Assembly: GCF_011045215.1 (NCBI RefSeq)
Contig: NZ_CP049201.1
Direction: 5' to 3' (one strand)
Length of the DNA: 64,000 bases
DNA from: Escherichia coli
Lineage (GTDB): Bacteria > Pseudomonadota > Gammaproteobacteria > Enterobacterales > Enterobacteriaceae
The position numbers were made by a program, and so were the translations under genes. Of the stretch, positions 6,907 through 41,762 are shown one piece after another (the first letter of the stretch is position 1; each line of letters begins with the position of its first letter). The notes below the pieces were generated by a model that was not told where the DNA came from, ran no database searches, and saw nothing but the letters and a program-made list of their open reading frames with translations.

Positions 6907-6954
6907 GGTATTGTCGGATGCGTCGCGTGGCGCATCCGACAGTTGTGCGCAGAT

Positions 6955-7840
6955 GCCTGATGCGACGCTGGCGCGTCTTATCATGCCTACAGGCCTGAAC
7001 CGTAGGTCGGATAAGGCGCTCGCACCGCATCCGACACCGTGCTCAGTGCCTGATGCGACGCAGGCGCGTCTTATCATACCTACAGGCCTGAACCGTAGGT
7101 CGGATAAGGCGCTCGCGGCGCATCCGACACCATGCGCAGATGCCTGATGCGACGCTGATGCGTCTTATCATGCCTACAGGCCTGAACCGTAGGTCGGATA
7201 AGGCGCTCGCGCCGCATCCGACACCATGCGCAGATGCCTGATGCGACGCTGATGCGTCTTATCATGCCTACAGGCCTGAACCGTAGGTCGGATAAGGCGC
7301 TCGCGCCGCATCCGACACCATGCGCCGATGCCTGATGCGACGCAGGCGCGTCTTATCATGCCTACAGGCCTGAACCGTAGGTCGGATAAGGCGCTCGCAC
7401 CGCATCCGACACCGTGCTCAGTGCCTGATGCGACGCTGATGCGTCTTATCATGCCTACAGGCCTGAACCGTAGGTCGGATAAGGCGCTCGCGCCGCATCC
7501 GACACCATGCGCAGATGCCTGATGCGACGCTGATGCGTCTTATCATGCCTACAGGCCTGAACCGTAGGTCGGATAAGGCGCTCGCGCCGCATCCGACACC
7601 ATGCGCCGATGCCTGATGCGACGCTGGCGCGTCTTATCATGCCTACAGGCCTGAACCGTAGGTCGGATAAGGCGCTCGCGCCGCATCCGACACCGTGCGC
7701 AGATGCCTGATACGACGCAGGCGCGTCTTATCATGCCTACAGGCCTGAACCGTAGGTCGGATAAGGCGCTCGCGCCGCATCCGACACCATGCGCCGATGC
7801 CTGATGCGACGCTTACCGCGTCTTATCATGCCTACCCACT
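6955..7840. repeat. Tandem array of REP/BIME units, about 9.5 copies of a ~94-bp unit
   Basis: Unit gcctgatgcgacgc...gtcttatcatgcctacaggcctgaaccgtaggtcggataaggcgctcgcgccgcatccgacacc... recurs with starts near 6955, 7049, 7143, 7237, 7331, 7425, 7519, 7613, 7707 and 7800, with a few point differences between copies. Confidence 0.9.
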
Positions 7841-20373: not shown

Positions 20374-20449
20374 ATTCACCACCCTGAATTGACTCTCTTC
20401 CGGGCGCTATCATGCCATACCGCGAAAGGTTTTGCGCCATTCGATGGTG

Positions 20450-21283
20450 TCAACGTAAATGCACGCCGCTTCGCCGTCCGGCTACCAGAATAGCCTGCGA
20501 TTCAACCCCTTCTTCGATCTGTTTTGCTACCCGTTGTAGCGCCGGAAGATGCTTTTCCGCTGCCTGTTCGATGGTCATTGCGCTCGCCATATACACCAGA
20601 TTCAGACAGCCAATCACCCGTTGTTCACTGCGCAGCGGTACGGCGATAGAGGCGATCTTCTCCTCCTGATCCCAGCCGCGGTAGTTCTGTCCGTAACCCT
20701 CTTTGCGCGCGCGCGCCAGAATGGCTTCCAGCTTTAACGGTTCTCGTGCCAGTTGATAGTCATCACCGGGGCGGGAGGCTAACATCTCGATTAATTCCTT
20801 GCGTTCTTGTTCCGGGCAAAAGGCCAGCCAGGTCAGGCCCGAGGCGGTTTTCAGAAGCGGCAAACGTCGCCCGACCATTGCCCGGTGAAAGGATAAGCGG
20901 CTGAAACGGTGGGTGGTTTCGCGTACCACCATTGCATCAACATCCAGCGTAGACACATCTGTCGGCCATACCACTTCGCGCAACAGATCGCCCAGCAGTG
21001 GGGCCGCCAGTGCAGAAATCCACTGTTCGTCACGAAATCCTTCGCTTAATTGCCGCACTTTGATGGTCAGACGAAAACTATCATCGGAGGGACTACGCCG
21101 GACATATCCCTCTTCCTGCAGCGTCTCCAGCAGTCGCCGCACAGTGGTGCGATGCAGGCCGCTGAGTTCCGCCAGCAGCCCGACGCTGGCACCGCCGTCA
21201 AGTTTATTTAACATATTTAATAACATTAGACCGCGGGTTAAGCCGCGCACGGTTTTGTATTCCGTCTGCTCATTGTTCTGCAT
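20450..21283 (-). CDS. mhpR: IclR-family activator of the mhp operon
   Basis: Protein MQNNEQTEYKTVRGLTRGLMLLNMLNKLDGG..., 277 aa. The ORF-track start is 38 codons further upstream, but that extension lacks supporting context. Confidence 0.88.
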   Translation of the reverse strand: MQNNEQTEYKTVRGLTRGLMLLNMLNKLDGGASVGLLAELSGLHRTTVRRLLETLQEEGYVRRSPSDDSFRLTIKVRQLSEGFRDEQWISALAAPLLGDLLREVVWPTDVSTLDVDAMVVRETTHRFSRLSFHRAMVGRRLPLLKTASGLTWLAFCPEQERKELIEMLASRPGDDYQLAREPLKLEAILARARKEGYGQNYRGWDQEEKIASIAVPLRSEQRVIGCLNLVYMASAMTIEQAAEKHLPALQRVAKQIEEGVESQAILVAGRRSGVHLR

Positions 21284-27744: not shown

Positions 27745-27789
27745 TATTGACTGCCGAGAACGTGCATTTTGTATGCCCATCCCAGCACG

Positions 27790-28135
<346 letters not shown>

Positions 28136-32269: not shown

Positions 32270-32545
32270 CTATTTAAGATAGGCACGAACCAGTTCAATA
32301 GTGTCGTCAACGGATTGGCTGACTTCGCGGCTGTAGCAGTCATTTCGGTCAAACGTTTCCCGGATATGGCTTTCAAGCACTTCTGCCATCAGCCCATTAG
32401 CCGCGCCCCGAACGGCAGCGATCTGTTGGAGTATGGCACGGCATTCGGCATCACCCTCCAGCGACCGTTCCAGAGCATCAATCTGCCCTCGAATACGACG
32501 AACTCGAGTAAGGACCTTTTTCTTCTCTTCCGGAGTACTGGGCAT
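32270..32545 (-). CDS. frmR: Formaldehyde-responsive repressor FrmR (CsoR/RcnR family)
   Basis: Protein [48 protein letters not shown]..., 91 aa. The ORF track starts 7 codons upstream. Confidence 0.9.
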
Positions 32546-32570
32546 TTCGCACCTCATCATCTGCATGCAA

Positions 32571-32622
32571 TATACTATAGGGGGGTATGCTATATGTCAA
32601 TGCATACCCCCCTATAGTATAT
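32571..32622 (-). promoter_or_regulatory. frmRAB promoter/operator: long G/C-tract inverted repeat
   Basis: atactataggggggtatgc ... gcatacccccctatagtat forms a near-perfect palindrome immediately upstream of frmR. Confidence 0.7.
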
Positions 32623-32704
32623 AACACTGGAGAATAATTGTTGTCCGAAGCCTAACCAGGCGAACGGTCCCTCAAGACAGATGGGGACCGTTTATGTGCT
32701 ATTT

Positions 32705-33751
32705 TTATGCCGCATCCGCTAAAACAAACATCCCGTAAGGATGGATTTCGAGGTAATAGTGCTCACCAATATCGGGCTGTAAACGGGTGGCGTTTACTTG
32801 TAATAAAATCTCCTGTCCATGCCACTCTACGGTCACTTCGTACTGCGGCCCCATGTAGGCGACATGGCGAATAACACAACGCTGACTCTCTTCGCCGTGA
32901 TTGCTTAAGGTGATGGCTTCCGGGCGAACGCCGACGGTGCCGCTACCTTGCGCCGGGAAATGCGCCGCGCGCGGCAGGCGATAACCGTAGATATCGACAT
33001 ACTCTTCGCTAAAGTTCGCCGGGAACAGGTTGGCGTCGCCCATAAAACTTGCCATAAATCGGGAGGCTGGCTGACGATAGAGATCCTGCGGTGAGCCAAT
33101 CTGCATGATGTGACCTTTATTCATCACCAGCACAGTGTCGGACACCGCGAAAGCTTCACTTTGATCGTGAGTGACGTAGAGCGACGTGATATTAAACTGC
33201 TTTTGCAGCTCGCGGATCTTATCGCGCATACTGCGGCGCAGGTTGGCATCGAGGTTACTTAACGGCTCATCAAACAGCAGCACCTTTGGCTTGAGGATCA
33301 ACGCGCGGGCCAGTGCCACACGCTGTTGCTGACCACCGGAAATCTGATCGACATAGCGGTCCTCGAAGCCTTCCAGATCCACCATTGCCAGCGCCTCCTT
33401 CACCCGCTGTTTCACTTCGCTACGCGACACGCCAAGCATCTTCAGCCCGTAGCCAACGTTTTCACCCAGCGACATATGCGGGAACAGAGCGTATGACTGA
33501 AACACCATGCAGATATCGCGCTGTTGAATGGAACGATGCGTGACATCTTCGCCATCAATAAAAATTTGCCCTTCGCTCGGTTTTTCCAGCCCGGCAACCA
33601 GACGCAAAATGGTGGTTTTGCCACAGCCGGAAGGACCGAGCAGCGTCACCATTTGCCCTTGTGGAATGGTGAGATTGATATTGTCGATAACCGTATTACT
33701 GCCGAATCGTTTAGTGACGTTGCGCAGTTCAACAAAATTTTTCTGACTCAT
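32705..33751 (-). CDS. afuC: ABC transporter ATP-binding subunit, AfuC/FbpC-type, with a C-terminal TOBE-like domain
   Basis: Walker [13 protein letters not shown] signature [15 protein letters not shown], Walker [12 protein letters not shown]. Start chosen at the second ATG ([12 protein letters not shown]...), which has a GGAG Shine-Dalgarno sequence; the ORF-track ATG at 33763 overlaps the afuB stop as TAATG. Confidence 0.85.
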
Positions 33752-33762
33752 AGTGCGCTCCA

Positions 33763-35841
33763 TTACGCCTGGTTTTTGGCTTTAGAACGGGAGATACGAG
33801 CTTCTCCGATCAGCCAGTCAAAGAGGAAAATAATCGCCAGCATCACCACGATCAGAATCGAACCATAGGCGATGGCTACGCCATATTCGCCGTCTTCAAC
33901 GCGGTTAAGAATGTAGGCGGTTGCCACGCGGGTGTCCGGCGTGACGAGAAAGACGATGGCGCTGACCGTCGTGATGGCCCGCACAAAGCTGTAGATCAGG
34001 GCCGAGAGAATGGCCGGACGCAGCAGCGGCAGTAAAATGTGGGTTATGGTTCGCAAGGAACCCGCGCGCAGGCTGAGTGAGGCTTCATCCAGCGATTTGT
34101 CGATCTGCCCCAGACCCGCAATCCCGGCGCGAATACCCACCGGAACGTTACGCATCACCATCGAGATAATCACAATTGCCGCCGTTCCGGTGAGATAAAC
34201 CGGAGCGCTGTTAAAGGCAAGAATATACGAAACGCCCGCCACCGTACCCGGTACGGCAAAGCACAGCATGGTGGTGAACTCGATGGTCTTTTTGCCTTTG
34301 AATTGTTGACGCACCACCACCCAGGCGATGAGCAGGCCAAAGATAGCGGTAATGGGAGCGGCAATCCCGGCGTAGAGCAGGGTATCCAGCAGTGAAGGCC
34401 ACGCGCCGTCGCTCATTCCCTGACCAAATAGCTTGATAAAGTTATCCAGCGTCAGGGTGTAGTCCACGCCCCAGTTCACCGTGAAGCTGCCGTAGAAAAT
34501 GCTGCCGTAGAGCAGGGCGTTAAAGGCAATCCATATCGCAAGTATGGCGACCACGCTCCACACCAGGGTGACCGGTAGCGGCTGGACGTCGCCACGGTAG
34601 GATTTGCCGGAAACCGTGACGTAAGAGCGTTTACCAATCCACATATACTGGATGCAGAACACCAGCAGCGAGAACAGCAGCAGGAAAGCGCCAAGGGTGC
34701 TGGCGGCCTGATAATCCAGCTGCGAGCCGGTAATATAGAAGTAAATTTGCGTCGCCAGTACGTCGAAGTTACCGCCAAGTACCAGCGGGTTACTGAAATC
34801 AGCCAGTGACTGTACCACGACGATTAAAAAGGCATTGGCGAGTGCGGGCTTTAGCAACGGCACAAACACGCCGTTAAAGGTTTGCCAGCGGCTGGCGCGC
34901 AGGGTGTAGGAGGCCTCTTCCAGCGAGGGATGAATGGTTTTAATGGCCCCGTCGAGGATCATAAATGCCATTGGCGTGAATGCCAGAACCTGTGCCAGCC
35001 AGATCCCGGTAAAACCGTACAGCCAGTTGGTGTTGGTCAGCCCAAACCACTCCACCATAAATTCCGTAACATAGCCGGAGCGCCCCATCATGAGCGTCAC
35101 GCCTAAGCCGACCACAAACGGTGGCGTAACGATGGGCAAAATGGAAAAGATGCGACCAATAATGGCGCTGCGTTTAGCGATGCGCGTGGTATAAATCGCC
35201 AGCACCAGGCCGAAGAAAGTACAGCCTATCCCCACCGCTATCGACAAGACGATAGAGTTGACGATCACCTGAACAATATGTGCCTGCGAGAGCACGGTCA
35301 TAAACGCCAGCGGGGCGAACTCTCCCGCGTCGTTGGTGAACATCGGGATAAAAATGGCGATGCTCGGCCAGACGATAAAAATGCCAATCAGCGCCACAAT
35401 CGCAATCAGTGAGCCGATCACGAAGCGGTCGCCGCCCAGCCATTCGAGGCGGGTTAAGGCCAGCGTCATAATCGCGCCTAGTTCAACAAACAGCACGATG
35501 GCGGCGTAGCCTAAACCGCGTCCAGCCACGGTGGCGCTGATGACGATAAACGCCATACAGAGCAATGCCCAGCTGGCATCAAAATAATGACGACTACGCT
35601 GTTCGCGTGTGACCTCACGAAACGGGCGAACCAGCAACAGACTCGGTAACAAATACCACAGCCAGCTGATATTAAAATGCGACCAGCCATAAGCCTCGAG
35701 GATCTCATCACTCGTGGACTCCAGCAGGCCATAATCGAGGCTCCAGCTCGGCAACAGTATAAATGCCAGCCAGCCCAGCAAAACCCAAAGGAAAATCGCA
35801 TCCCGCTTTTTCACGGGATGGAGTGCAAGTGTCTGTGACAT
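33763..35841 (-). CDS. afuB: ABC transporter permease, fused two-domain FbpB/AfuB type
   Basis: About 692 aa and highly hydrophobic, with duplicated permease halves. Start taken at the ATG giving [14 protein letters not shown]...; the ORF-track start at 35892 is a TTG. Confidence 0.8.
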
Positions 35842-35909
35842 AGCAGTTCCGGTATGGTTGGCCGGGGCAGGCGTTTGTGCTGCACCCGGCAAATACGCCT
35901 AATGCGGGT

Positions 35910-36941
35910 TTATTTACCCATCTTCACTTCGCTGACCCATTTATTAATCAATGCCTTACGAACATCCGTGGAACCATATTTATCCATGTCGTAGTTGATT
36001 AATTTCAGGTCGTCGAGCTTCAGCGAATTTGGCGACGTTTCGGCGGTGGTATTGGTCAGGATCTGATAAGACTTCCCTTTCTTCCACGCCAGTTCCTGAG
36101 CTTCTTTTGATAATACCCAGTCCACAAACAGTTTGGCGTTGTCGAGGTTGCGCGCGCCTTTCAGAATGCTGACGCCGCCAATTTCGTAGCCCGTACCTTC
36201 ACACGGGGAAATCAACTCCAGCGGCGCGCCCTGTTCTTTTTCCAGCGAGTAGTCATGCAGGAAGCCAATACCAATCGCCGTTTCGCCACGGGCGGCGTTA
36301 CGTGCCGGGGCTATGCCTGATTTGGTGTACTGAGAGACGTTGGCGTTCAGTTGTTTTAGATAATCAAAGGCCTGATCTTCCCCCCACAGCTGCGCAAAAG
36401 TAGCCAGGGCGGTGTAGGCAGTACCGGAACTTTGCGGATCGGCAATTTGAATTTCGCCTTTATATTCCGGTTTGGTGAGATCTTTCCAGCACTTCGGCAC
36501 CGGCAGGTTTTTCTCTTTCAGACGATCGGTGTTTACGCCAAAACCGAGGATCCCCACATAAACGGCAGAGGACAGATTCCCTTTCACTTTTGCCGGATCG
36601 CGGAATTTCTCCATGATCTGCTCAAGGTTAGGGGATTTATACGCCTGTAGCAGGCCCATCTCGCCAGCCTGCGATTGCGGGTCTAAAGTGCCGCCGTACC
36701 AGACGTCAGCCTGGGGGTTTTTCTTTTCAGCATCGACTTTTGCCAGGGTGCTTCCGGAACCGTTGCGGATAAACGAGGTTTTTACATCATATTTCTCGCC
36801 AAACGCTTTGGTTTCGGCCTCACACATTTCATTGGTGGCGCTGCAATAGACCACCAGCCGGCCTTTTGCCTGCGCGGCACCCGTTAAAGTCGCCAGCGCA
36901 ACGGCAGAAGCAATCAGAGTAGAGGTAAAGGTCATTTTCAT
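35910..36941 (-). CDS. afuA: Periplasmic substrate-binding protein, AfuA-type (sugar-phosphate/ferric-binding fold family)
   Basis: Start at the ATG at 36941-36939, preceded by AAGGA, giving MKMTFTSTLIASAVALATLTGAAQA-KGR... with a clear signal peptide; 343 aa. The ORF track extends 109 codons upstream with no support. Confidence 0.85.
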   Translation of the reverse strand: MKMTFTSTLIASAVALATLTGAAQAKGRLVVYCSATNEMCEAETKAFGEKYDVKTSFIRNGSGSTLAKVDAEKKNPQADVWYGGTLDPQSQAGEMGLLQAYKSPNLEQIMEKFRDPAKVKGNLSSAVYVGILGFGVNTDRLKEKNLPVPKCWKDLTKPEYKGEIQIADPQSSGTAYTALATFAQLWGEDQAFDYLKQLNANVSQYTKSGIAPARNAARGETAIGIGFLHDYSLEKEQGAPLELISPCEGTGYEIGGVSILKGARNLDNAKLFVDWVLSKEAQELAWKKGKSYQILTNTTAETSPNSLKLDDLKLINYDMDKYGSTDVRKALINKWVSEVKMGK

Positions 36942-38242
36942 TGTTTTATCCTTCGAGCGTGAGTGGTGGTGATGCCCGCCATCAGTAACGGCATCAGCAG
37001 TAAACCCATAAGTACTGCGGCGACCGAGAGTAAACTGAACATTCCCGGCCAGCCGTAGCGTTCGATGACCAGCGACAGCGGCCAGCCTGCCAGCGCCGCG
37101 CCAAGGTAAGCGAACAGGCCGAGAAATCCGGTGATTGAACCCGCCGCAGCTTTGTGCCCACACTCCACCGCCGCAAGTCCAATCAGCATTTGTGGGCCAA
37201 AGACGAAAAAGCCCACGGTAAAAAAGCACACTGCCAGCAGAGCGTAGTGATGAACCGGTGCCAGCCACAGTGCGGCGACTGACACCATCAACCCCAACGT
37301 GAACAGCAAAATCATTGGCGCTCGTTGCCCGCTAAACAGCAAATCCGATCCCCATCCGGCAAATAACGCGCCGAGTAAGCCGCCCACTTCAAACAGCATT
37401 ACCGTGGCGTTGGCGCTGAGCAGGTTGACACCGTGGCTTTCCGTCAGCCAGATATTGCCCCAGTCGTTAAGCGCAATCCGGATCACATAAACCAGTACAT
37501 AAGAGACGCCCAGTAGCCAGATCAGCGGATTTTGCAGCATGGTGGTGCGCAACATTTGCCACAGCCCCATCGGCGGACTTTGTTGTTCCTGACGTAACTC
37601 CAGCGGATCGTGACGCCAGTGACCAACTGTCGGTAATCCCTCTTCCTGGGGCGTGCCTTTGAGTTGTAGCGTTAACCAGATCCCTAATGCCATGCTGATT
37701 ATCCCCGGTGTCAGCATCGCGGCCTGCCAGCCCCACCAGTGGGCGGCAAAGGCGCTAATCAGCGGAATAATCGCTCCGCCAATGTTGATCGACATATTCC
37801 AGCAGCCCCACCAGAAACCGCGCTCATTGCGTGAGTACCAGTGGGTCAGCAAGCGGGCACACGGTGGCCATCCCCAGCCCTGAAAAAAACCGTTCAGTGT
37901 CCAGACCACAAGCAGAAGCGTAAGTGATTCGCCAAAGGCAAACACCACGTTCAATAACCCGGTGGCGAACAAGCCGACGCCCATAAAACCGCGTTGTCCG
38001 TGGCTGTCATGCCACAGTCCGGCGGTAAATTTCGACAATCCGTAGCTGAGATAAAACAGCGAACCCAGCAGGCCAATGTCGCCTTTATCCAGTCCGAGGT
38101 CGGTTTGTAGCGCCGGAAGGACGTAATTCACGCTTTTTCGCGTCAGATAAAATGCGGCGTAGCCAATAATCATGCACATCAGCAATCGCGGACGTAATGT
38201 CCGGTAGCATTGATTAATTTCTCTCGCTGAACGCGCGTGCAT
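36938..38242 (-). CDS. MFS organophosphate:phosphate antiporter-family protein, UhpC-like (probable sugar-phosphate sensor)
   Basis: About 434 aa with UhpC/UhpT-like sequence (...YAAFYLTRKSVNYVLPALQTDLGL...). Its TGA stop overlaps the afuA ATG (ATGA). Start probably at the second ATG (GGAGA Shine-Dalgarno); 38254 is the alternative. Confidence 0.8.
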   Translation of the reverse strand: MHARSAREINQCYRTLRPRLLMCMIIGYAAFYLTRKSVNYVLPALQTDLGLDKGDIGLLGSLFYLSYGLSKFTAGLWHDSHGQRGFMGVGLFATGLLNVVFAFGESLTLLLVVWTLNGFFQGWGWPPCARLLTHWYSRNERGFWWGCWNMSINIGGAIIPLISAFAAHWWGWQAAMLTPGIISMALGIWLTLQLKGTPQEEGLPTVGHWRHDPLELRQEQQSPPMGLWQMLRTTMLQNPLIWLLGVSYVLVYVIRIALNDWGNIWLTESHGVNLLSANATVMLFEVGGLLGALFAGWGSDLLFSGQRAPMILLFTLGLMVSVAALWLAPVHHYALLAVCFFTVGFFVFGPQMLIGLAAVECGHKAAAGSITGFLGLFAYLGAALAGWPLSLVIERYGWPGMFSLLSVAAVLMGLLLMPLLMAGITTTHARRIKQ

Positions 38243-38326
38243 GGTTGTCTCCATGTTGCTGACTATATGAAAATGAAAGTGAAAGGGGATGAGAGAAAAT
38301 CCGGGATACCTAAGACTTTTTCCTGG

Positions 38327-39868
38327 TTATCCGGCGATTTGTTGCAAAAATGTGGGCAAGTTAACAATTACCCGCGTGCCGTGCTGTTTTTCGAGCGTTA
38401 AGTCGCCGCCCAGGGCGCTGACGCGCTCACGCATCCCCTGAATGCCAAATCCGGCCATTTTCCCGCTGGCGATCCCCACACCGTTGTCGCTGACTTCCAG
38501 ATGCAATACCTCTCCCTGCTGGCGCAGGATAATCGTCACTTCGCTGGCTTCGGCGTGTTTACAGATGTTATTGAGCAACTCCTGCAATAACCGATACAAG
38601 GTAAAGCGCACCGTTTCGTTTTCTGGTGTGGAGTTCAGTTGATAGGCAAACTGGCAATGAATGCCGCGTTCACTAAAGGCAAATTCATTAATCAGATGCA
38701 ACAACGCTTCGCGAAATGTCAGTTCATCAAGCGCGGGAGGCCGCAACTGGCGTAGCAATTGGCGGGTGGAGAGATGAATGCGGCGGGCGAGCTCATTGAT
38801 TTGGCTGGCTGCGGATTGAATTTGCGCCGGATCACGCGCCCGCTTCACCAGTTGCGACTGGATCTGAATGGCGGTGATGTTCTGACCGATTTCGTCGTGC
38901 AGCTCTCGCGCCAGGTTTTTTCGCGTGTCCTCCTCGGTGTGGATCAGCTTTTCCGCCAATGCCCGCCGCGCTGCCAGCTCGGCCTCCAGCCGTTGTCGGT
39001 AATGGTGCAGGTTTAGCGCCAGATGTTGCTGGCGACTGATGGCAATGCCCAGGCCAATTCCCAGCAAGGCCTGGGTCGCGAGGAAAATCTCCAGCTCCAC
39101 CAGGTTACTAAAGCCCACGCCAATCTGGCGGGCGATGGTGATCATCATGCTGCCCAAAAGCCCGGAGAGTACGCCACCTTGCCAGCCAAATTTCCACGCC
39201 ATCACCACATTGGGCAAAAAGACCACGATCAACAGCAGACGTTCAATTTCAGGTGACAGCACCATCTGAGTGCCGATACCAATAATAAAAAACAGGCTAC
39301 ACCAGATGATTAAAGAGGTACGCAAGGGGGGATTATGCGTATCGAGTCCCAGGAGCTGGTAGCGATGCTGCTGGCGCAGAAACTCAAAGATAAGATAGAC
39401 AAACGGCGTCAGTAATACGCCGCCGGTAAATGAGGTCAAACCCGGCAGCATTATTGGGCCCGACATAAAAGGGGAGAGCAGGGCGGTATTCAACAATGAA
39501 GCTGCCGTGACAGTGGCTAACAGCAACGTCAGACGCTGCCAGTAAAGTGGAAAACGGTGCCAGAAGTTTTGCGCAAGGAGGACAGGAAACAGGCTAATAA
39601 CCGGCGTTGCCAGCATGAGATAACCGTTCAATAGCTGTTCACTATGGAGCCAGAACATCATCAGCAAAGGGGGGAGCACCAACGCAGGCCAGTAGCGGCG
39701 AGAGAGCAAAATAACAAGGGCGAGATAAACTCCCTGAGGGAGAAACAACACTGCCTGTTGACCGTTATTGGTCAGATAAAAGCTGAGCGTCCACAGCATC
39801 AGCCAGCCGGTTCCCCAGGCCAGCACAATAAACAGCGAAATCACCCAATGACGAAGATTGCGCGACAT
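38327..39868 (-). CDS. Membrane sensor histidine kinase, UhpB-like (MASE1 N-terminal domain, HisKA_3, HATPase)
   Basis: 513 aa with about 8 N-terminal transmembrane helices, an H-box RELHDEIGQNITAIQ, and ATPase motifs DNGVGI...GFGIQGMRERV. Confidence 0.85.
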   Translation of the reverse strand: MSRNLRHWVISLFIVLAWGTGWLMLWTLSFYLTNNGQQAVLFLPQGVYLALVILLSRRYWPALVLPPLLMMFWLHSEQLLNGYLMLATPVISLFPVLLAQNFWHRFPLYWQRLTLLLATVTAASLLNTALLSPFMSGPIMLPGLTSFTGGVLLTPFVYLIFEFLRQQHRYQLLGLDTHNPPLRTSLIIWCSLFFIIGIGTQMVLSPEIERLLLIVVFLPNVVMAWKFGWQGGVLSGLLGSMMITIARQIGVGFSNLVELEIFLATQALLGIGLGIAISRQQHLALNLHHYRQRLEAELAARRALAEKLIHTEEDTRKNLARELHDEIGQNITAIQIQSQLVKRARDPAQIQSAASQINELARRIHLSTRQLLRQLRPPALDELTFREALLHLINEFAFSERGIHCQFAYQLNSTPENETVRFTLYRLLQELLNNICKHAEASEVTIILRQQGEVLHLEVSDNGVGIASGKMAGFGIQGMRERVSALGGDLTLEKQHGTRVIVNLPTFLQQIAG

Positions 39869-40497
39869 TAATGCCCCGCCAGCAGATGGTGGTCGAGCGC
39901 AAAATGTACCAGTTCAATGGTGCTATGGCAGTTCAGTTTTCCCAGCACATTGGCGCGATGCACATGTACCGTTTTATGACTGAGTTCGAGTTTAAAGGCG
40001 ATCTCTTTAACGCTGTCTCCTTTGACCAGTAAATCAAACACTTCACGTTCTCGTGGGGTGAGAATTTCTAGCGCCTGGGCGGGTTGCCCGCCGCCGCGTA
40101 AAGCCCGAATCGCATCGGCACAGAGATAATGCCCGCCCAGCCCGACCGAGCGCACCGCCTGTACTAACTCTTCCGGCCCACAGCGTTTGGTTAAATACCC
40201 GCTGGCACCAGCATCCAGCGCGCTTTGCACAAAGGTTGGCGCGTCATAAATGCTAAGAATAATGGCGCGAAATTGCGGTTTTTGTGCACGCAGGCGCTTA
40301 AGCAAACTGAGGCCGTTTTCGTCCGGCATGGCAATATCAATGACGGCAACATTGACGTCATCACGGATTAATGCCGACCATGCCTGCGCGGCACTACTGT
40401 ACTGACCAATGACCTCCAGATCGTCTTCCAGAGAGAGTAATTGTGCGAAGCCAGAGCGCACCACCACATGGTCATCCACCAGCACTACCCGAATCAT
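39868..40497 (-). CDS. Response regulator, UhpA-like (NarL/LuxR family)
   Basis: 209 aa, MIRVVLVDDHVVVRSGFAQLL... receiver domain plus a C-terminal LuxR HTH (TPREREVFDLLVKGDSVKEIAFKLELSHKTVHVHRANVLGKL). Its TAA stop overlaps the kinase ATG (TAATG). Confidence 0.85.
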   Translation of the reverse strand: MIRVVLVDDHVVVRSGFAQLLSLEDDLEVIGQYSSAAQAWSALIRDDVNVAVIDIAMPDENGLSLLKRLRAQKPQFRAIILSIYDAPTFVQSALDAGASGYLTKRCGPEELVQAVRSVGLGGHYLCADAIRALRGGGQPAQALEILTPREREVFDLLVKGDSVKEIAFKLELSHKTVHVHRANVLGKLNCHSTIELVHFALDHHLLAGH

Positions 40498-40799
40498 ACT
40501 TTTCTTCTCTTATTATCTAATTCTCCTATCATGCATCACGGCGCGGCGCTGGCAATCAACCAGCGACAGATATGGAATGGATGTAACAAAATGGCAATAA
40601 TTTGCCGGAGCGCACACATCTTATCTGGCTTGTGAACCGGCGGGATACGTTCGCCAAAACCGCAAAATGCGCAAACTCGCTAACCATTGCCGATTTTTTT
40701 CTAAAAACGCTTTGTTCTTAACAAGACCTTTTAATTCCTTTATCAAACTGACCCGCAACGAAATACTGCTCCCATAACAAGACAGGGGAGCAGACAATC

Positions 40800-41762
40800 A
40801 TGGCAATTTCATCGCGTAACACTCTTCTTGCCGCACTGGCATTCATCGCTTTTCAGGCGCAGGCGGTGAACGTCACCGTGGCGTATCAAACCTCAGCCGA
40901 ACCGGCGAAAGTGGCTCAGGCTGATAACACCTTTGCCAAAGAGAGCGGGGCGAACGTGGACTGGCGCAAGTTTGACAGCGGAGCCAGCATCGTGCGGGCG
41001 CTGGCTTCAGGCGATGTGCAAATCGGCAACCTCGGTTCCAGCCCGTTAGCGGTTGCAGCCAGCCAACAGGTGCCGATTGAAGTCTTCTTGCTGGCGTCAA
41101 AACTGGGTAACTCCGAAGCGCTGGTGGTAAAGAAAACTATCAGCAAACCCGAGGATCTGATTGGCAAACGCATCGCAGTGCCGTTTATCTCCACCACCCA
41201 CTACAGCCTGCTGGCGGCGCTGAAACACTGGGGCATTAAACCCGGGCAAGTGGAGATTGTGAACCTGCAGCCGCCCGCGATTATCGCTGCCTGGCAGCGG
41301 GGAGATATTGATGGTGCTTATGTCTGGGCACCGGCGGTTAACGCCCTGGAAAAAGACGGCAAGGTGTTGACCGATTCTGAACAGGTCGGGCAGTGGGGCG
41401 CGCCAACGCTGGACGTTTGGGTGGTGCGCAAAGATTTTGCCGAGAAACATCCTGAGGTCGTGAAAGCGTTCGCTAAAAGCGCCATCGATGCTCAGCAACC
41501 GTACATTGCTAACCCAGACGTGTGGCTGAAACAGCCGGAAAACATCAGCAAACTGGCGCGTTTAAGCGGCGTGCCTGAAGGTGACGTTCCGGGGCTGGTG
41601 AAGGGGAATACCTATCTGACGCCGCAGCAACAAACGGCAGAACTGACCGGACCGGTGAACAAAGCGATCATCGACACCGCGCAGTTTTTGAAAGAGCAGG
41701 GCAAGGTCCCGGCTGTAGCGAATGATTACAGCCAGTACGTTACCTCGCGCTTCGTGCAATAA
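40800..41762 (+). CDS. tauA: Taurine ABC transporter periplasmic binding protein
   Basis: 320-aa ORF with a signal peptide, MAISSRNTLLAALAFIAFQAQA... Confidence 0.93.
   Translation: MAISSRNTLLAALAFIAFQAQAVNVTVAYQTSAEPAKVAQADNTFAKESGANVDWRKFDSGASIVRALASGDVQIGNLGSSPLAVAASQQVPIEVFLLASKLGNSEALVVKKTISKPEDLIGKRIAVPFISTTHYSLLAALKHWGIKPGQVEIVNLQPPAIIAAWQRGDIDGAYVWAPAVNALEKDGKVLTDSEQVGQWGAPTLDVWVVRKDFAEKHPEVVKAFAKSAIDAQQPYIANPDVWLKQPENISKLARLSGVPEGDVPGLVKGNTYLTPQQQTAELTGPVNKAIIDTAQFLKEQGKVPAVANDYSQYVTSRFVQ

Follow-up and report, generated by a model that had tools for sequence, protein, structure and literature searches.

An O-island OI-20 module with Uhp-like regulators as a probable old resident of the frmR-tauA interval in Escherichia coli

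Results

Gene content of the interval

The window considered here is a 64,000-nucleotide stretch of E. coli DNA. Between frmR and tauA it carries six intact genes, all on the minus strand (Table 1), which account for 7,635 of the 8,233 bases in 32567-40799 (~93%). The four non-coding gaps measure 158, 68, 84 and 302 bp and thus leave no room for an IS element. PGAP annotation of the closest genome, identical across this stretch, lists the same six genes and nothing more. A first-pass annotation, made from the sequence alone, had held that IS elements and yaiO-, yaiX-, yaiP- or yaiS-type genes are missing from the interval, and that its sizeable ORFs all belong to one afu/uhp-like block. Both statements are confirmed by the presence of fusR, fusK, z0461, afuA, afuB and afuC only, and this six-gene content also bears out the description of the interval as a single coherent functional module rather than IS debris.

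The start of frmR was placed at 32546 rather than 32566: in the longer ORF, the match to the FrmR profile begins only at residue 8, and the PGAP coordinates of the closest genome concur. The z0461 gene starts at 38242, at an ATG kept across genera, and overlaps the start of afuA by 4 nt, while the stop of fusR overlaps the start of fusK. The product of afuC combines the Pfam domains ABC_tran and TOBE_2.

Table 1. Features of the frmR-tauA interval and its immediate flanks.
Feature	Position	Strand	Remarks
frmR	32271..32546	-	left core flank; NCBIfam FrmR equivalog 188.8 bits
inverted repeat, 21 nt, 100% complementary, ATATACTATAGGGGGGTATGC / GCATACCCCCCTATAGTATAT	32570..32622		upstream of frmR
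allele-specific block, 8,024 bp	32638..40661		pairwise BLAST breakpoints vs empty state and K-12
afuC (annotated fbpC), ABC transporter ATPase	32705..33751	-	NF008513 699.5 bits, cutoff 496
afuB, fused double permease, 692 aa	33763..35841	-	two BPD_transp_1 stretches; PGAP coordinates
afuA, periplasmic sugar-phosphate binding protein	35910..36941	-	match to PDB 4R72-4R75
uhpC-like MFS protein (z0461 of EDL933)	36938..38242	-	NCBIfam UhpC subfamily 587.7 bits, cutoff 564
-10-like hexamer TATAGT, putative z0461-afuABC promoter	38262..38267	-	conserved in cross-genus gap alignment
inverted repeat ACCAGGAAAAAGTCTTAGG, YYARG-N7-YYTRG, candidate FusR (UhpA paralogue) site	38309..38327	-	centred near -62
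fusK, UhpB-like MASE1 histidine kinase	38327..39868	-	Pfam MASE1 + HisKA_3 + HATPase_c
fusR, UhpA-like response regulator	39868..40497	-	Pfam Response_reg + GerE
fusR-proximal non-coding block, incl. TATGGAATGGATGTAACAAAATGGCAAT	40498..40605	-	candidate fusR promoter/operator
variable spacer, fusR vs tauA control regions	40606..40689		not kept between genera; empty-state breakpoint 40661/40662
tauA upstream block, kept across genera	40690..40799	+	in window and empty state; K-12: last 38 bp only
tauA	40800..41762	+	right core flank; NCBIfam NF008553 697.5 bits

The module is already known. We are almost certain that the unit fusR-fusK-z0461(uhpC-like)-afuA-afuB-afuC is OI-20, the O-island published for E. 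coli O157:H7, on which Sit et al. placed afuABC and FusKR (PMC4546632). OI-20 of EDL933 (Z0458-Z0463: afuC, afuB, afuA, z0461, fusK, fusR) matches the window in genes, order, strand and frmR/tauA flanks, and the block is 99.0% identical over 8,024 bp to that of EDL933 and other O157:H7 and O55:H7 genomes, with the flanks alike. The window itself is not O157:H7 and is nearer to PapM-32-1 and ZF8-1 (from baboon stool and chicken faeces; 99.7-99.8%). The first-pass annotation did not identify the block with the published island (FusKR, z0461, AfuABC).

Allelic states across E. coli

The interval had been called variable, and three main states were indeed found among 5,426 complete E. coli genomes. 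The K-12-type yaiO-yaiS block occupies it in at least 4,257, an empty junction with a REP element only in 594, and the module in 446 (8%); about 129 have other contents. By appearance, module-bearing genomes are mostly O157:H7 and relatives, while non-O157 carriers come from baboon stool, chicken faeces, beef and fresh water. As the first-pass annotation stated, the K-12 content is absent from the interval: at this position K-12 MG1655 has yaiO, yaiX (an acetyltransferase gene split by IS2), yaiP and a pseudogene of yaiS, and no afu/uhp-like genes. The K-12 block lies in the same frmR-tauA interval, with a left breakpoint within 11 bp of that in the window, but its genes are of other kinds (outer-membrane beta-barrel, acetyltransferase, glycosyltransferase, deacetylase), IS2 and pseudogenes are present, and its GC content is lower (47.2%, with a spacer at 29.3%, against 53.7% in the module and 52.8-55.4% in the flanks).

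In pairwise BLAST alignments, homology to both the empty state and K-12 stops after 32637; on the right it resumes at 40662 in the empty state and only at 40762 in K-12. Breakpoints are not the same from allele to allele. The empty state has 75 bp (the REP element) in place of the 8,024-bp block. The K-12 allele has had 100 bp of conserved tauA upstream region removed, and positions 40690-40761, which are conserved in the window, the empty state and other genera, are replaced there. The spacer corresponding to 40606-40689 contains REP-like elements in C. portucalensis, C. youngae and Raoultella.

The module in other genera

Comparison with other species was based on the best 80 loci. Of these, 73 have all six genes in unchanged order; the other seven lack at least one, several of those stretches being short. 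As in the window, tauA is divergent and no more than 700 bp from fusR in 26 of the 80, and the module adjoins tauA in Klebsiella, Raoultella, Enterobacter and others. The order in Citrobacter sedlakii is mhpDFE-mhpT-mmuPM-afuCBA-uhpC-fusKR-tauABCD-hemB, and that in C. braakii differs only by the lack of tauABCD. No D7-type integrase (see below) was found within 10 kb of the module at any of these best 80 loci. Representative genomes of E. albertii, E. fergusonii and E. marmotae are absent from the best 80, where carriers should rank, and the module thus appears patchy in the genus. On the left side there is no synteny with the outgroups (yaiL-frmBAR in the window, mmuPM in the outgroups), so polarity is readable at the right junction alone.

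When the window is compared with Citrobacter, Klebsiella and Enterobacter, module genes have an NG86 dS of 0.75-1.8, and tauA-D, hemB and mhpEFT one of 0.64-1.56; values near 1 are close to saturation and limit the power of this comparison. Within Escherichia, module divergence follows flank divergence over a wide range. Identity to the window is 97.3-99.9% (module) and 98.3-99.6% (flanks) in EDL933, 96.4-98.9% and 96.1-99.5% in UTME-7, 92.3-97.0% and 94.0-98.4% in MFDS1019527, and 91.8-95.1% and 90.0-93.8% in L014, a divergent Escherichia representative with the module beside tauA.

Copies elsewhere in E. coli

At other loci, a module copy with 92-94% identity is present in about 70 E. coli genomes, and module fragments occur on plasmids. 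Both of the other-locus copies examined (ST69 and D7) directly adjoin a tyrosine integrase, the D7 copy at tRNA-Phe; they comprise the same unit as the window, from the fusR promoter block to afuC, and indicate that the module can move. An IS4-family-like end, CTGTCTCTTATACACAA, abuts the 3' region of afuC in the ST69 copy. K-12 retains a remnant, mmuP-mmuM-afuC-afuB', in its CP4-6 region (afuC and part of afuB, 85.7% identity), in which afuB is truncated by IS1. The examined full copies and this remnant abut IS debris, and the full copies an integrase as well; the window copy has neither. The D7 and K-12 versions are, furthermore, mosaics with a Citrobacter-like afuC and mmuPM side (dS 0.97), unlike the window copy.

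Transport, sensing and candidate control sites

AfuA of the window matches PDB entries 4R72-4R75 (A. pleuropneumoniae AfuA, sugar-phosphate-bound) at E = 1.5e-169, and the ligand residues H205/D206/E229 named for that protein (PMC4546632) are conserved as H229/D230/E253. Orthologous AfuABC systems have been shown by others to perform ATP-driven import of glucose-6-P, fructose-6-P and sedoheptulose-7-P, and those of Actinobacillus pleuropneumoniae and Citrobacter rodentium (Sit et al. 2015, PMC4546632) share with the window a fused permease and a TOBE-domain ATPase. AfuABC of the window is very probably a sugar-phosphate importer, although its database label is still that of a "ferric" transporter (fbpC).

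The remaining genes resemble the UhpABC-UhpT system of K-12, which has the same order (regulator, MASE1 kinase, MFS receptor, transporter) and identical domain architectures. The fusR product is 47% identical to UhpA, the fusK product 35% to UhpB, and z0461 53% to UhpC and 30% to UhpT. We regard the Fus proteins as paralogues rather than orthologues, the fusR and fusK products scoring below the UhpA and UhpB equivalog cutoffs (193.4 against 258 bits and 381.7 against 408 bits, respectively). The two systems also differ in their output transporter (the ABC importer afuABC as opposed to the antiporter UhpT), in the position of the regulated promoter (putatively upstream of the receptor gene in the module, downstream of it in K-12 Uhp), and in the published signal of FusK, which is fucose, unlike the hexose-phosphates sensed by K-12 Uhp. 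The three upstream genes copy the UhpA/UhpB/UhpC sensor layout, with afuABC in place of uhpT.

Across many genera, 76 of 79 loci contain the YYARG-N7-YYTRG element between fusK and z0461, and Buttiauxella, Erwinia and Rahnella have it in perfect form (CCAGGAA-N3-TTCCTGG). The element occurs only once in the window, against a chance expectation of 0 matches, and its centre lies a fixed 50.5 nt from the -10 element in 67 of 72 loci, across lineages with saturated dS. The K-12 uhpT promoter has TCCAGG-N5-CCTGGA; the CCAGG/CCTGG half-sites are thus common to both systems and stand upstream of the transporter promoter in both, though spaced by 7 nt in the module and 5 in K-12. This repeat is absent from the FusR site quoted for ler, and a consensus promoter scan returned no more sites than expected by chance, the TATAGT promoter not being among them. 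Judged from these sequence elements, control of z0461-afuABC by FusR is an evenly poised proposition: phosphorylated FusR would act at the conserved repeat, ~62 nt upstream of the promoter start, and the promoter in this gap would drive a single z0461-afuABC transcript.

The fusR-proximal block is conserved in alignment with Citrobacter, Klebsiella, Raoultella, Enterobacter and Intestinirhabdus and includes a sigma-70-like site at 40555-40528; homology of the integrase-linked E. coli copies to it persists to about 40591.

Discussion

Our preferred explanation, to which we assign a probability of roughly 0.7, is that the interval holds the OI-20 unit as an old resident of the site, engaged in sugar-phosphate uptake with Uhp-like control. 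Two aspects of this explanation, namely what the module does and how it came to its position, meet different alternatives.

With respect to function, FusKR may instead be a dedicated fucose sensor for ler/LEE and the fuc genes, with z0461 as a fucose importer, an incidental adjacency of afuABC, and AfuABC outside FusR control. Summaries of the published FusKR work (PMC11644481, PMC6199705) describe fucose sensing by FusK with autophosphorylation in response, binding of FusR to the ler promoter, repression of z0461, fuc genes and ler by FusKR, and impaired growth on fucose after z0461 deletion; sugar-phosphate-dependent afuABC activation is not reported there. Several features of the module sit uneasily with such a role. 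Firstly, the six-gene order found in 73 of the best 80 loci extends to Serratia, Rahnella, Erwinia and Yersinia, none of which is known to carry LEE. Secondly, z0461 passes a curated model for UhpC, a glucose-6-P receptor, and has only the low identity to the transporter UhpT given above. Thirdly, the overlap of z0461 and afuA leaves no space for a promoter, and the UhpA-box-like repeat and -10 element upstream of z0461 are under purifying selection. A dedicated fucose sensor is conceivable but somewhat doubtful, and the two views are compatible if fucose/LEE control is a later co-option.

With respect to origin, we consider it probable that the module is the ancestral occupant rather than an IS- or integrase-borne insert, and that most E. 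coli exchanged or lost it. The module would have been present first beside tauA, in a slot that is orthologous in many Enterobacteriaceae; most E. coli would later have either swapped it for the lower-GC yaiO-yaiX-yaiP-yaiS block (K-12 type) or lost it with a REP element left behind (ST131 type), and alleles would then have passed between lineages as the conserved frm and tau flanks recombined homologously. The orthologous slot, together with divergence in step with the flanks, argues for old content and a derived K-12 content. Given that the module state is a minority, ancestry needs either several losses or one early, spreading replacement.

An unlikely variant is that the module was missing in the E. 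coli ancestor and was regained with its frm/tau flanks by homologous recombination from an Escherichia lineage such as a cryptic clade. The shared divergence level of module and flanks fits one recombined segment, the conserved flanks are recombination substrates, and L014, with flanks 90-94% identical, has the module beside tauA. Yet this variant departs from the preferred explanation in prior residence only, the module still being genus-ancestral and the event an allelic exchange, and the four divergence classes of the module-plus-flank segment suggest that several lineages have long harboured it.

The view usually taken in publications, a horizontally acquired island integrated in a frmR-tauA hotspot in O157:H7 and a few others, appears less likely still. 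The block's name, O-island OI-20, implies acquisition, and it has been called laterally acquired, "possibly from E. faecalis", and "present in EHEC O157:H7" (PMC11644481, PMC4810492); the minor frequency of the module state, its carriage as cargo on integrase-bearing islands at tRNA-Phe and elsewhere, and its fragments on plasmids are in keeping with this. The comparative data of the window do not back acquisition. At the frmR-tauA locus we found no integrase, tRNA, att-type direct repeat, target-site duplication or IS, and module GC equals flank GC. The position is orthologous, and dS flank-like, in Citrobacter, Klebsiella and Enterobacter, module and flanks co-diverge within Escherichia, and non-O157 strains of diverse sources carry the module too. 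For the same reasons, the integration hotspot proposed in the first-pass annotation is not upheld, and its implied polarity, with the module as the insert, is likely the reverse of the true one: the derived right junction is that of K-12, which lost a tauA-upstream block conserved across genera.

It is scarcely credible that the module represents cargo of a composite transposon or IS-mobilised unit that has decayed, its ends eroded past recognition, for although IS debris bounds the module elsewhere (the ST69 IS4-family-like end, the K-12 IS1 in afuB), transposase fragments, terminal repeats and duplications are all absent at the frmR-tauA locus, and the 158- and 302-bp gaps are mostly common to other states or genera.

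The earlier statement that the interval shows neither a transposase ORF nor a terminal inverted repeat holds: its genes have no transposase or integrase family match, and an inverted-repeat search found no pair bracketing the block. The sole strong inverted repeat in the interval is the G6/C6 palindrome at 32570-32622, upstream of frmR. As it occurs in all three allelic states (window, K-12 and empty), it is not a mobile-element end; a sigma-70-like site at 32600-32572 overlaps it, and the palindrome probably represents the FrmR operator together with the promoter.

Gene content of the frmR-tauA interval

The interval between frmR and tauA holds six genes, all intact and all on the minus strand, which together take up 7,635 of its 8,233 bases (93%). 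The first-pass annotation had assigned every sizeable open reading frame here to an afu/uhp-like block and had recorded the absence of genes of the yaiO, yaiX, yaiP and yaiS type, and the gene content bears out both statements. Within the afuABC operon, the permease and ATPase genes lie downstream of afuA with gaps of 68 and 11 bp. The longest reading frame of z0461 begins at 38254, although the only start conserved across genera is an ATG at 38242 that follows a conserved GGAGA; some O157:H7 annotations carry the longer form (438 versus 434 aa).

Features of the frmR-tauA interval and its flanks (positions refer to the window)
Feature	Position	Strand	Description
frmR	32271-32546	minus	left flank of interval
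afuC	32705-33751	minus	ABC ATPase, ABC_tran and TOBE_2 (Pfam); NCBIfam "ferric ABC transporter ATP-binding protein", 699.5 bits
afuB	33763-35841	minus	fused double permease, two BPD_transp_1 halves
afuA	35910-36941	minus	periplasmic binding protein
z0461	36938-38242	minus	UhpC-type MFS gene; NCBIfam UhpC subfamily, 587.7 bits (cutoff 564)
-10-like TATAGT	38262-38267		84-bp fusK-z0461 gap; conserved across genera
inverted repeat ACCAGGAAAAAGTCTTAGG	38309-38327		84-bp fusK-z0461 gap; starts at last base of fusK stop codon
fusK	38327-39868	minus	histidine kinase, MASE1, HisKA_3 and HATPase_c (Pfam)
fusR	39868-40497	minus	response regulator, REC and GerE (Pfam)
tauA	40800-41762	plus	right flank of interval

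Over 8,024 bp the block shares 99.0% identity with that of O157:H7 strain EDL933, and over its full length 99.0% with those of other O157:H7 strains and O55:H7, in each case between the same flanks. The published content of O-island OI-20 (afuCBA, z0461, fusK and fusR; Sit et al., PMC4546632) agrees, and this match identifies the kinase as FusK, the regulator as FusR and the MFS gene as z0461. The module is therefore already known: it is OI-20, a catalogued difference between O157:H7 and K-12 whose functions have been studied.

A profile search matched none of the six genes to a transposase or integrase family, and the non-coding gaps of the interval (158, 68, 84 and 302 bp) could not hold an IS-sized element. 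The block ends were searched for terminal inverted repeats, direct repeats and duplications, and yielded only a palindrome upstream of frmR and short matches at chance level. The marks of an IS or composite transposon (a transposase reading frame, terminal inverted repeats and a target-site duplication) are thus all absent from the interval, as the first-pass annotation had anticipated for the first two. The palindrome (32570-32622), whose two 21-nt arms match perfectly and have G6/C6 cores, is the only strong inverted repeat in the interval; it overlaps a sigma-70-like promoter (32600-32572) and is probably the FrmR operator. Since it is common to all three allelic states described below, it is better read as a control sequence of frmR than as the end of a mobile element.

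Alternative occupants of the interval in E. coli

Of 5,426 complete E. coli genomes, 446 (8%) carry the module between both flanks, at least 4,257 a K-12-type yaiP-yaiS segment and 594, ST131 included, an empty junction, while around 129 were assigned to none of these three main states. Several alternative contents, IS variants among them, therefore stand between the same core genes, and the interval is variable, as had been proposed. We found no specific description of a frmR-tauA/yaiO hotspot in the literature. Isolates carrying the module include those from baboon stool, chicken faeces, beef and fresh water.

In K-12 MG1655, alignment recovered no afu/uhp-like genes at this position; frmR and tauA instead enclose yaiO, an IS2-split acetyltransferase gene, yaiP and a yaiS pseudogene. 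In the empty state they lie 305 bp apart with a REP element between them, and in Ecol_276 (locus L003, 3639-3713) the place of the module is taken by 75 bp forming a REP-type palindromic element. On the left, all three states are homologous as far as window position 32637; on the right, homology to the window resumes at 40662 in the empty state and only at 40762 in K-12. On the left the empty state has 11 more bases in common with K-12, and on the right it has 100 more in common with the window; no junction of the three states shows a direct repeat or duplication. In some genomes a yaiP-yaiS-like segment matches at only ~85% identity and 73% coverage (hits H137-H139), and this segment may be a paralogue, or a divergent form, of the K-12-type block.

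Probable ancestry of the module

The first-pass annotation saw in the interval an integration hotspot holding a single coherent functional module, an interpretation that we consider half right. Variability of the site is confirmed, and the module, a six-gene unit of sensor and importer, is coherent and free of IS debris, yet it was probably not brought here by an integration event. The locus has no integrase, tRNA, att target or flanking direct repeats, whereas such features accompany the D7 and ST69 copies at other loci. Nor does the module display the features expected of a site-specific island, being neither atypical in composition nor missing from the orthologous site in related genera.

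We favour, with a probability of roughly 0.7, a reading in which the module would be the ancestral occupant of the slot. The empty state would then reflect deletion of the module with the REP element remaining, the yaiO-yaiS block a later replacement, possibly by way of the empty state, and homologous recombination within the frm and tau flanks would subsequently have exchanged alleles. The argument rests on the missing integration apparatus together with composition, position, synonymous divergence, co-divergence with the flanks and the derived appearance of a K-12 junction.

Firstly, the GC content of the module (53.7%) resembles that of its flanks (52.8% and 55.4%), whereas the K-12 block stands at 47.2% and its spacer adjoining tauA at 29.3%. 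Secondly, a scan for AfuA with one genome per species gave 348 loci, of which the best 80 were examined. All six genes occur in the same order in 73 of these, the other seven lacking at least one gene (several of those stretches are short). A divergent tauA lies no more than 700 bp from fusR, as in the window, in 26 of the 80, distributed over Citrobacter, Klebsiella, Raoultella, Enterobacter, Leclercia, Silvania, Huaxiibacter, Intestinirhabdus and others, and within 3.6 kb in four more; mmuM directly follows afuC in 23. The order in C. sedlakii is mhpDFE-mhpT-mmuPM-afuCBA-uhpC-fusKR-tauABCD-hemB, and C. braakii has the same without tauABCD, so that both species share with the window the placement of the module in an mhpT-hemB slot.

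Thirdly, comparison of the window with Citrobacter, Klebsiella and Enterobacter gave Nei-Gojobori dS values of 0.75-1.8 for the module genes and 0.64-1.56 for tauA-D, hemB and mhpEFT, which, albeit near saturation, give no sign of a younger module. Within Escherichia, module and flanks diverge together at four levels: identity to the window is 97.3-99.9% (module) and 98.3-99.6% (flanks) in EDL933, 96.4-98.9% and 96.1-99.5% in UTME-7, 92.3-97.0% and 94.0-98.4% in MFDS1019527, and 91.8-95.1% and 90.0-93.8% in L014, a divergent species representative labelled E. coli.

Lastly, a tauA-proximal block (~40690-40799) is conserved in all genera compared, the window and the empty state, while K-12 keeps only its last 38 bp, which marks K-12 as derived at the right junction. 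From Escherichia to Enterobacter, ~70-100 bp upstream of tauA are conserved (window 40690-40761) but missing from the K-12 locus (L002, 8196-8772), where a 29% GC spacer stands instead, so that most of the tauA control region of K-12 is not homologous to the ancestral one. Conservation across genera is also seen in a fusR-proximal block (40498-40605), and the stretch between the two blocks is variable, with REP-like elements in C. portucalensis, C. youngae and Raoultella. Such elements are also seen just downstream of afuC in several of the examined outgroup loci (C. amalonaticus, Klebsiella, Raoultella and Enterobacter), as well as in the D7 and K-12 copies discussed below.

Several observations weaken the case for ancestry. 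The module is present in only 8% of E. coli genomes, and the representatives of E. albertii, E. fergusonii and E. marmotae gave no match among the best 80 of the 348 loci. The left flank, moreover, offers no polarity, as afuC is followed in the outgroups by REP elements and mmuM rather than by frmR; neither frmR nor a D7-type integrase accompanies any of the best 80 of the 348 loci.

Copies of the module elsewhere

At least 80% of the block is carried by 518 genomes (~9.5% of complete E. coli) as against the 446 with it at frmR-tauA, which leaves up to ~72 genomes with the module elsewhere, at 92-94% identity. The module is thus able to travel. In an ST69 (O15:H18) genome (L004, 8023-17279) a complete six-gene copy adjoins a tyrosine integrase, and the island around them also holds iha and IS debris; the match of this copy to the afuC 3' region of the window lasts for the first 22 nt and then gives way to an IS4-family-like end. 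In strain D7 (L005, 8001-17509) a complete copy adjoins a tyrosine integrase at tRNA-Phe, with mmuM-mmuP on the far side. Homology in the copies elsewhere spans afuC to window position ~40591, comprising the six genes and the conserved fusR-proximal block; judged by its sequence, this span is a complete functional unit.

The CP4-6 region of K-12 MG1655 (L006, 6001-7406) retains an mmuP-mmuM-afuC-afuB' remnant of a second copy, truncated by IS1 and 85.7% identical to the window over 1.4 kb. Remnants of this type occur in hundreds of genomes, accounting for most of 458 records at 80-90% identity plus 45 plasmid places. Relative to the window, the D7/K-12 version has a dS of 0.97 in afuC (Citrobacter-like) and of 0.18-0.31 from afuB to fusR (Escherichia-like), and is accordingly a mosaic.

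The AfuABC importer

[quoted passage not shown] The AfuA of the window matches ligand-bound A. pleuropneumoniae AfuA (4R72-4R75) with E = 1.5e-169, and the three sugar-coordinating residues named in PMC4546632 are kept in the 4R72 alignment as H229, D230 and E253 of the window protein. Reference annotation nevertheless mis-names the block as a ferric-iron transporter, against the published evidence for sugar-phosphate import: in PGAP/NCBIfam, afuC is still "ferric ABC transporter ATP-binding protein FbpC" and afuB sometimes "iron ABC transporter permease" (32705-35841).

The FusKR-z0461 sensor and its candidate promoter

The module copies the uhpA-uhpB-uhpC-uhpT layout, encoding in that order a REC-GerE regulator, a MASE1-HisKA_3-HATPase_c kinase and a UhpC-type MFS receptor, with afuABC standing where uhpT does. 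FusR, FusK and z0461 are, from their sequences, paralogues of the Uhp proteins: identity is 47% to UhpA, 35% to UhpB and 53% to UhpC, and scores fall below the cutoffs for the UhpA (193.4 bits, cutoff 258) and UhpB (381.7, cutoff 408) equivalogs. z0461 and the transporter UhpT share only 30% identity. The 4-nt overlap of z0461 and afuA leads us to expect co-transcription.

An inverted repeat of the form YYARG-N7-YYTRG precedes z0461 in 76 of 79 loci, as a perfect CCAGGAA-N3-TTCCTGG in Buttiauxella, Erwinia and Rahnella, and occurs once in the window. In 67 of 72 loci the distance from its centre to the downstream -10 element is exactly 50.5 nt, which places it near -62. The K-12 uhpT promoter (TCCAGG-TTTTG-CCTGGA) has the same half-sites at a spacing of 5 nt. 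Conservation of the repeat and the -10 element across lineages with saturated dS points to a selected cis-element; a consensus promoter and terminator scan of the interval was uninformative, giving chance-level counts and failing to call the conserved TATAGT. Phosphorylated FusR may act at this candidate repeat on a z0461-afuABC transcript, a proposal to which we give even odds.

In reviews and citing papers (PMC11644481, PMC6199705, PMC4810492), FusK is described as sensing fucose and FusR as repressing ler, z0461 and the fuc genes, with the fucose signal and the repression of z0461 ascribed to FusKR in PMC11644481 and PMC6199705. Gene order and the UhpC-type receptor suggest, by analogy with Uhp, sugar-phosphate sensing instead of fucose. 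The two views could be compatible if fucose control of the LEE were a later EHEC co-option. We found no specific regulatory link between FusK and AfuA in the literature.

Implications for the view of OI-20

Finding the block is in itself ordinary; what this analysis adds is its likely polarity (module ancestral, K-12 content derived), its distribution, and a candidate promoter and operator. The literature regards OI-20 as a recent horizontal and nearly EHEC-specific acquisition, and the distribution seen here is wider than it states. With the module in ~9.5% of E. coli and in the same slot in many genera at flank-like divergence, its role in EHEC evolution reads differently. The conserved inverted repeat and promoter offer a directly testable link from the FusKR sensor to the AfuABC importer.

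A further reading, which we advance tentatively and rate somewhat short of even, would make the module an ancient, vertically inherited Enterobacterales system rather than an EHEC-specific island. Its primary, Uhp-like role would be to sense external sugar-phosphates through the UhpC-type receptor z0461, with FusR controlling a single z0461-afuABC transcript; the fucose sensing and LEE repression reported for O157:H7 would have been co-opted secondarily. As for the site itself, its real newcomer would be the yaiO-yaiS block, which would have displaced most of the tauA control region inherited from the ancestor as well.

Relatives of this copy and minor polymorphisms

The window does not derive from O157:H7, to which identity is 99.0% as compared with 99.7-99.8% to its closest matches, strains from baboon stool and chicken faeces. 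Nor is it PapM-32-1, the closest genome, with which it is collinear apart from an extra 1.8 kb in that genome between lacI and mhpR. This segment (L091, 11924-13757, ~1.8 kb) encodes an MBL-fold hydrolase and a GlxA-family regulator, is missing at window ~20443-20454, and represents another small presence/absence polymorphism. The window also contains two REP/BIME-type tandem arrays: 9.6 copies of a 94-bp unit at 6931-7835, placed between prpE and codB by collinearity with PapM-32-1, and 3.4 copies of a 101-bp unit at 27785-28129, between mhpE and mhpT.
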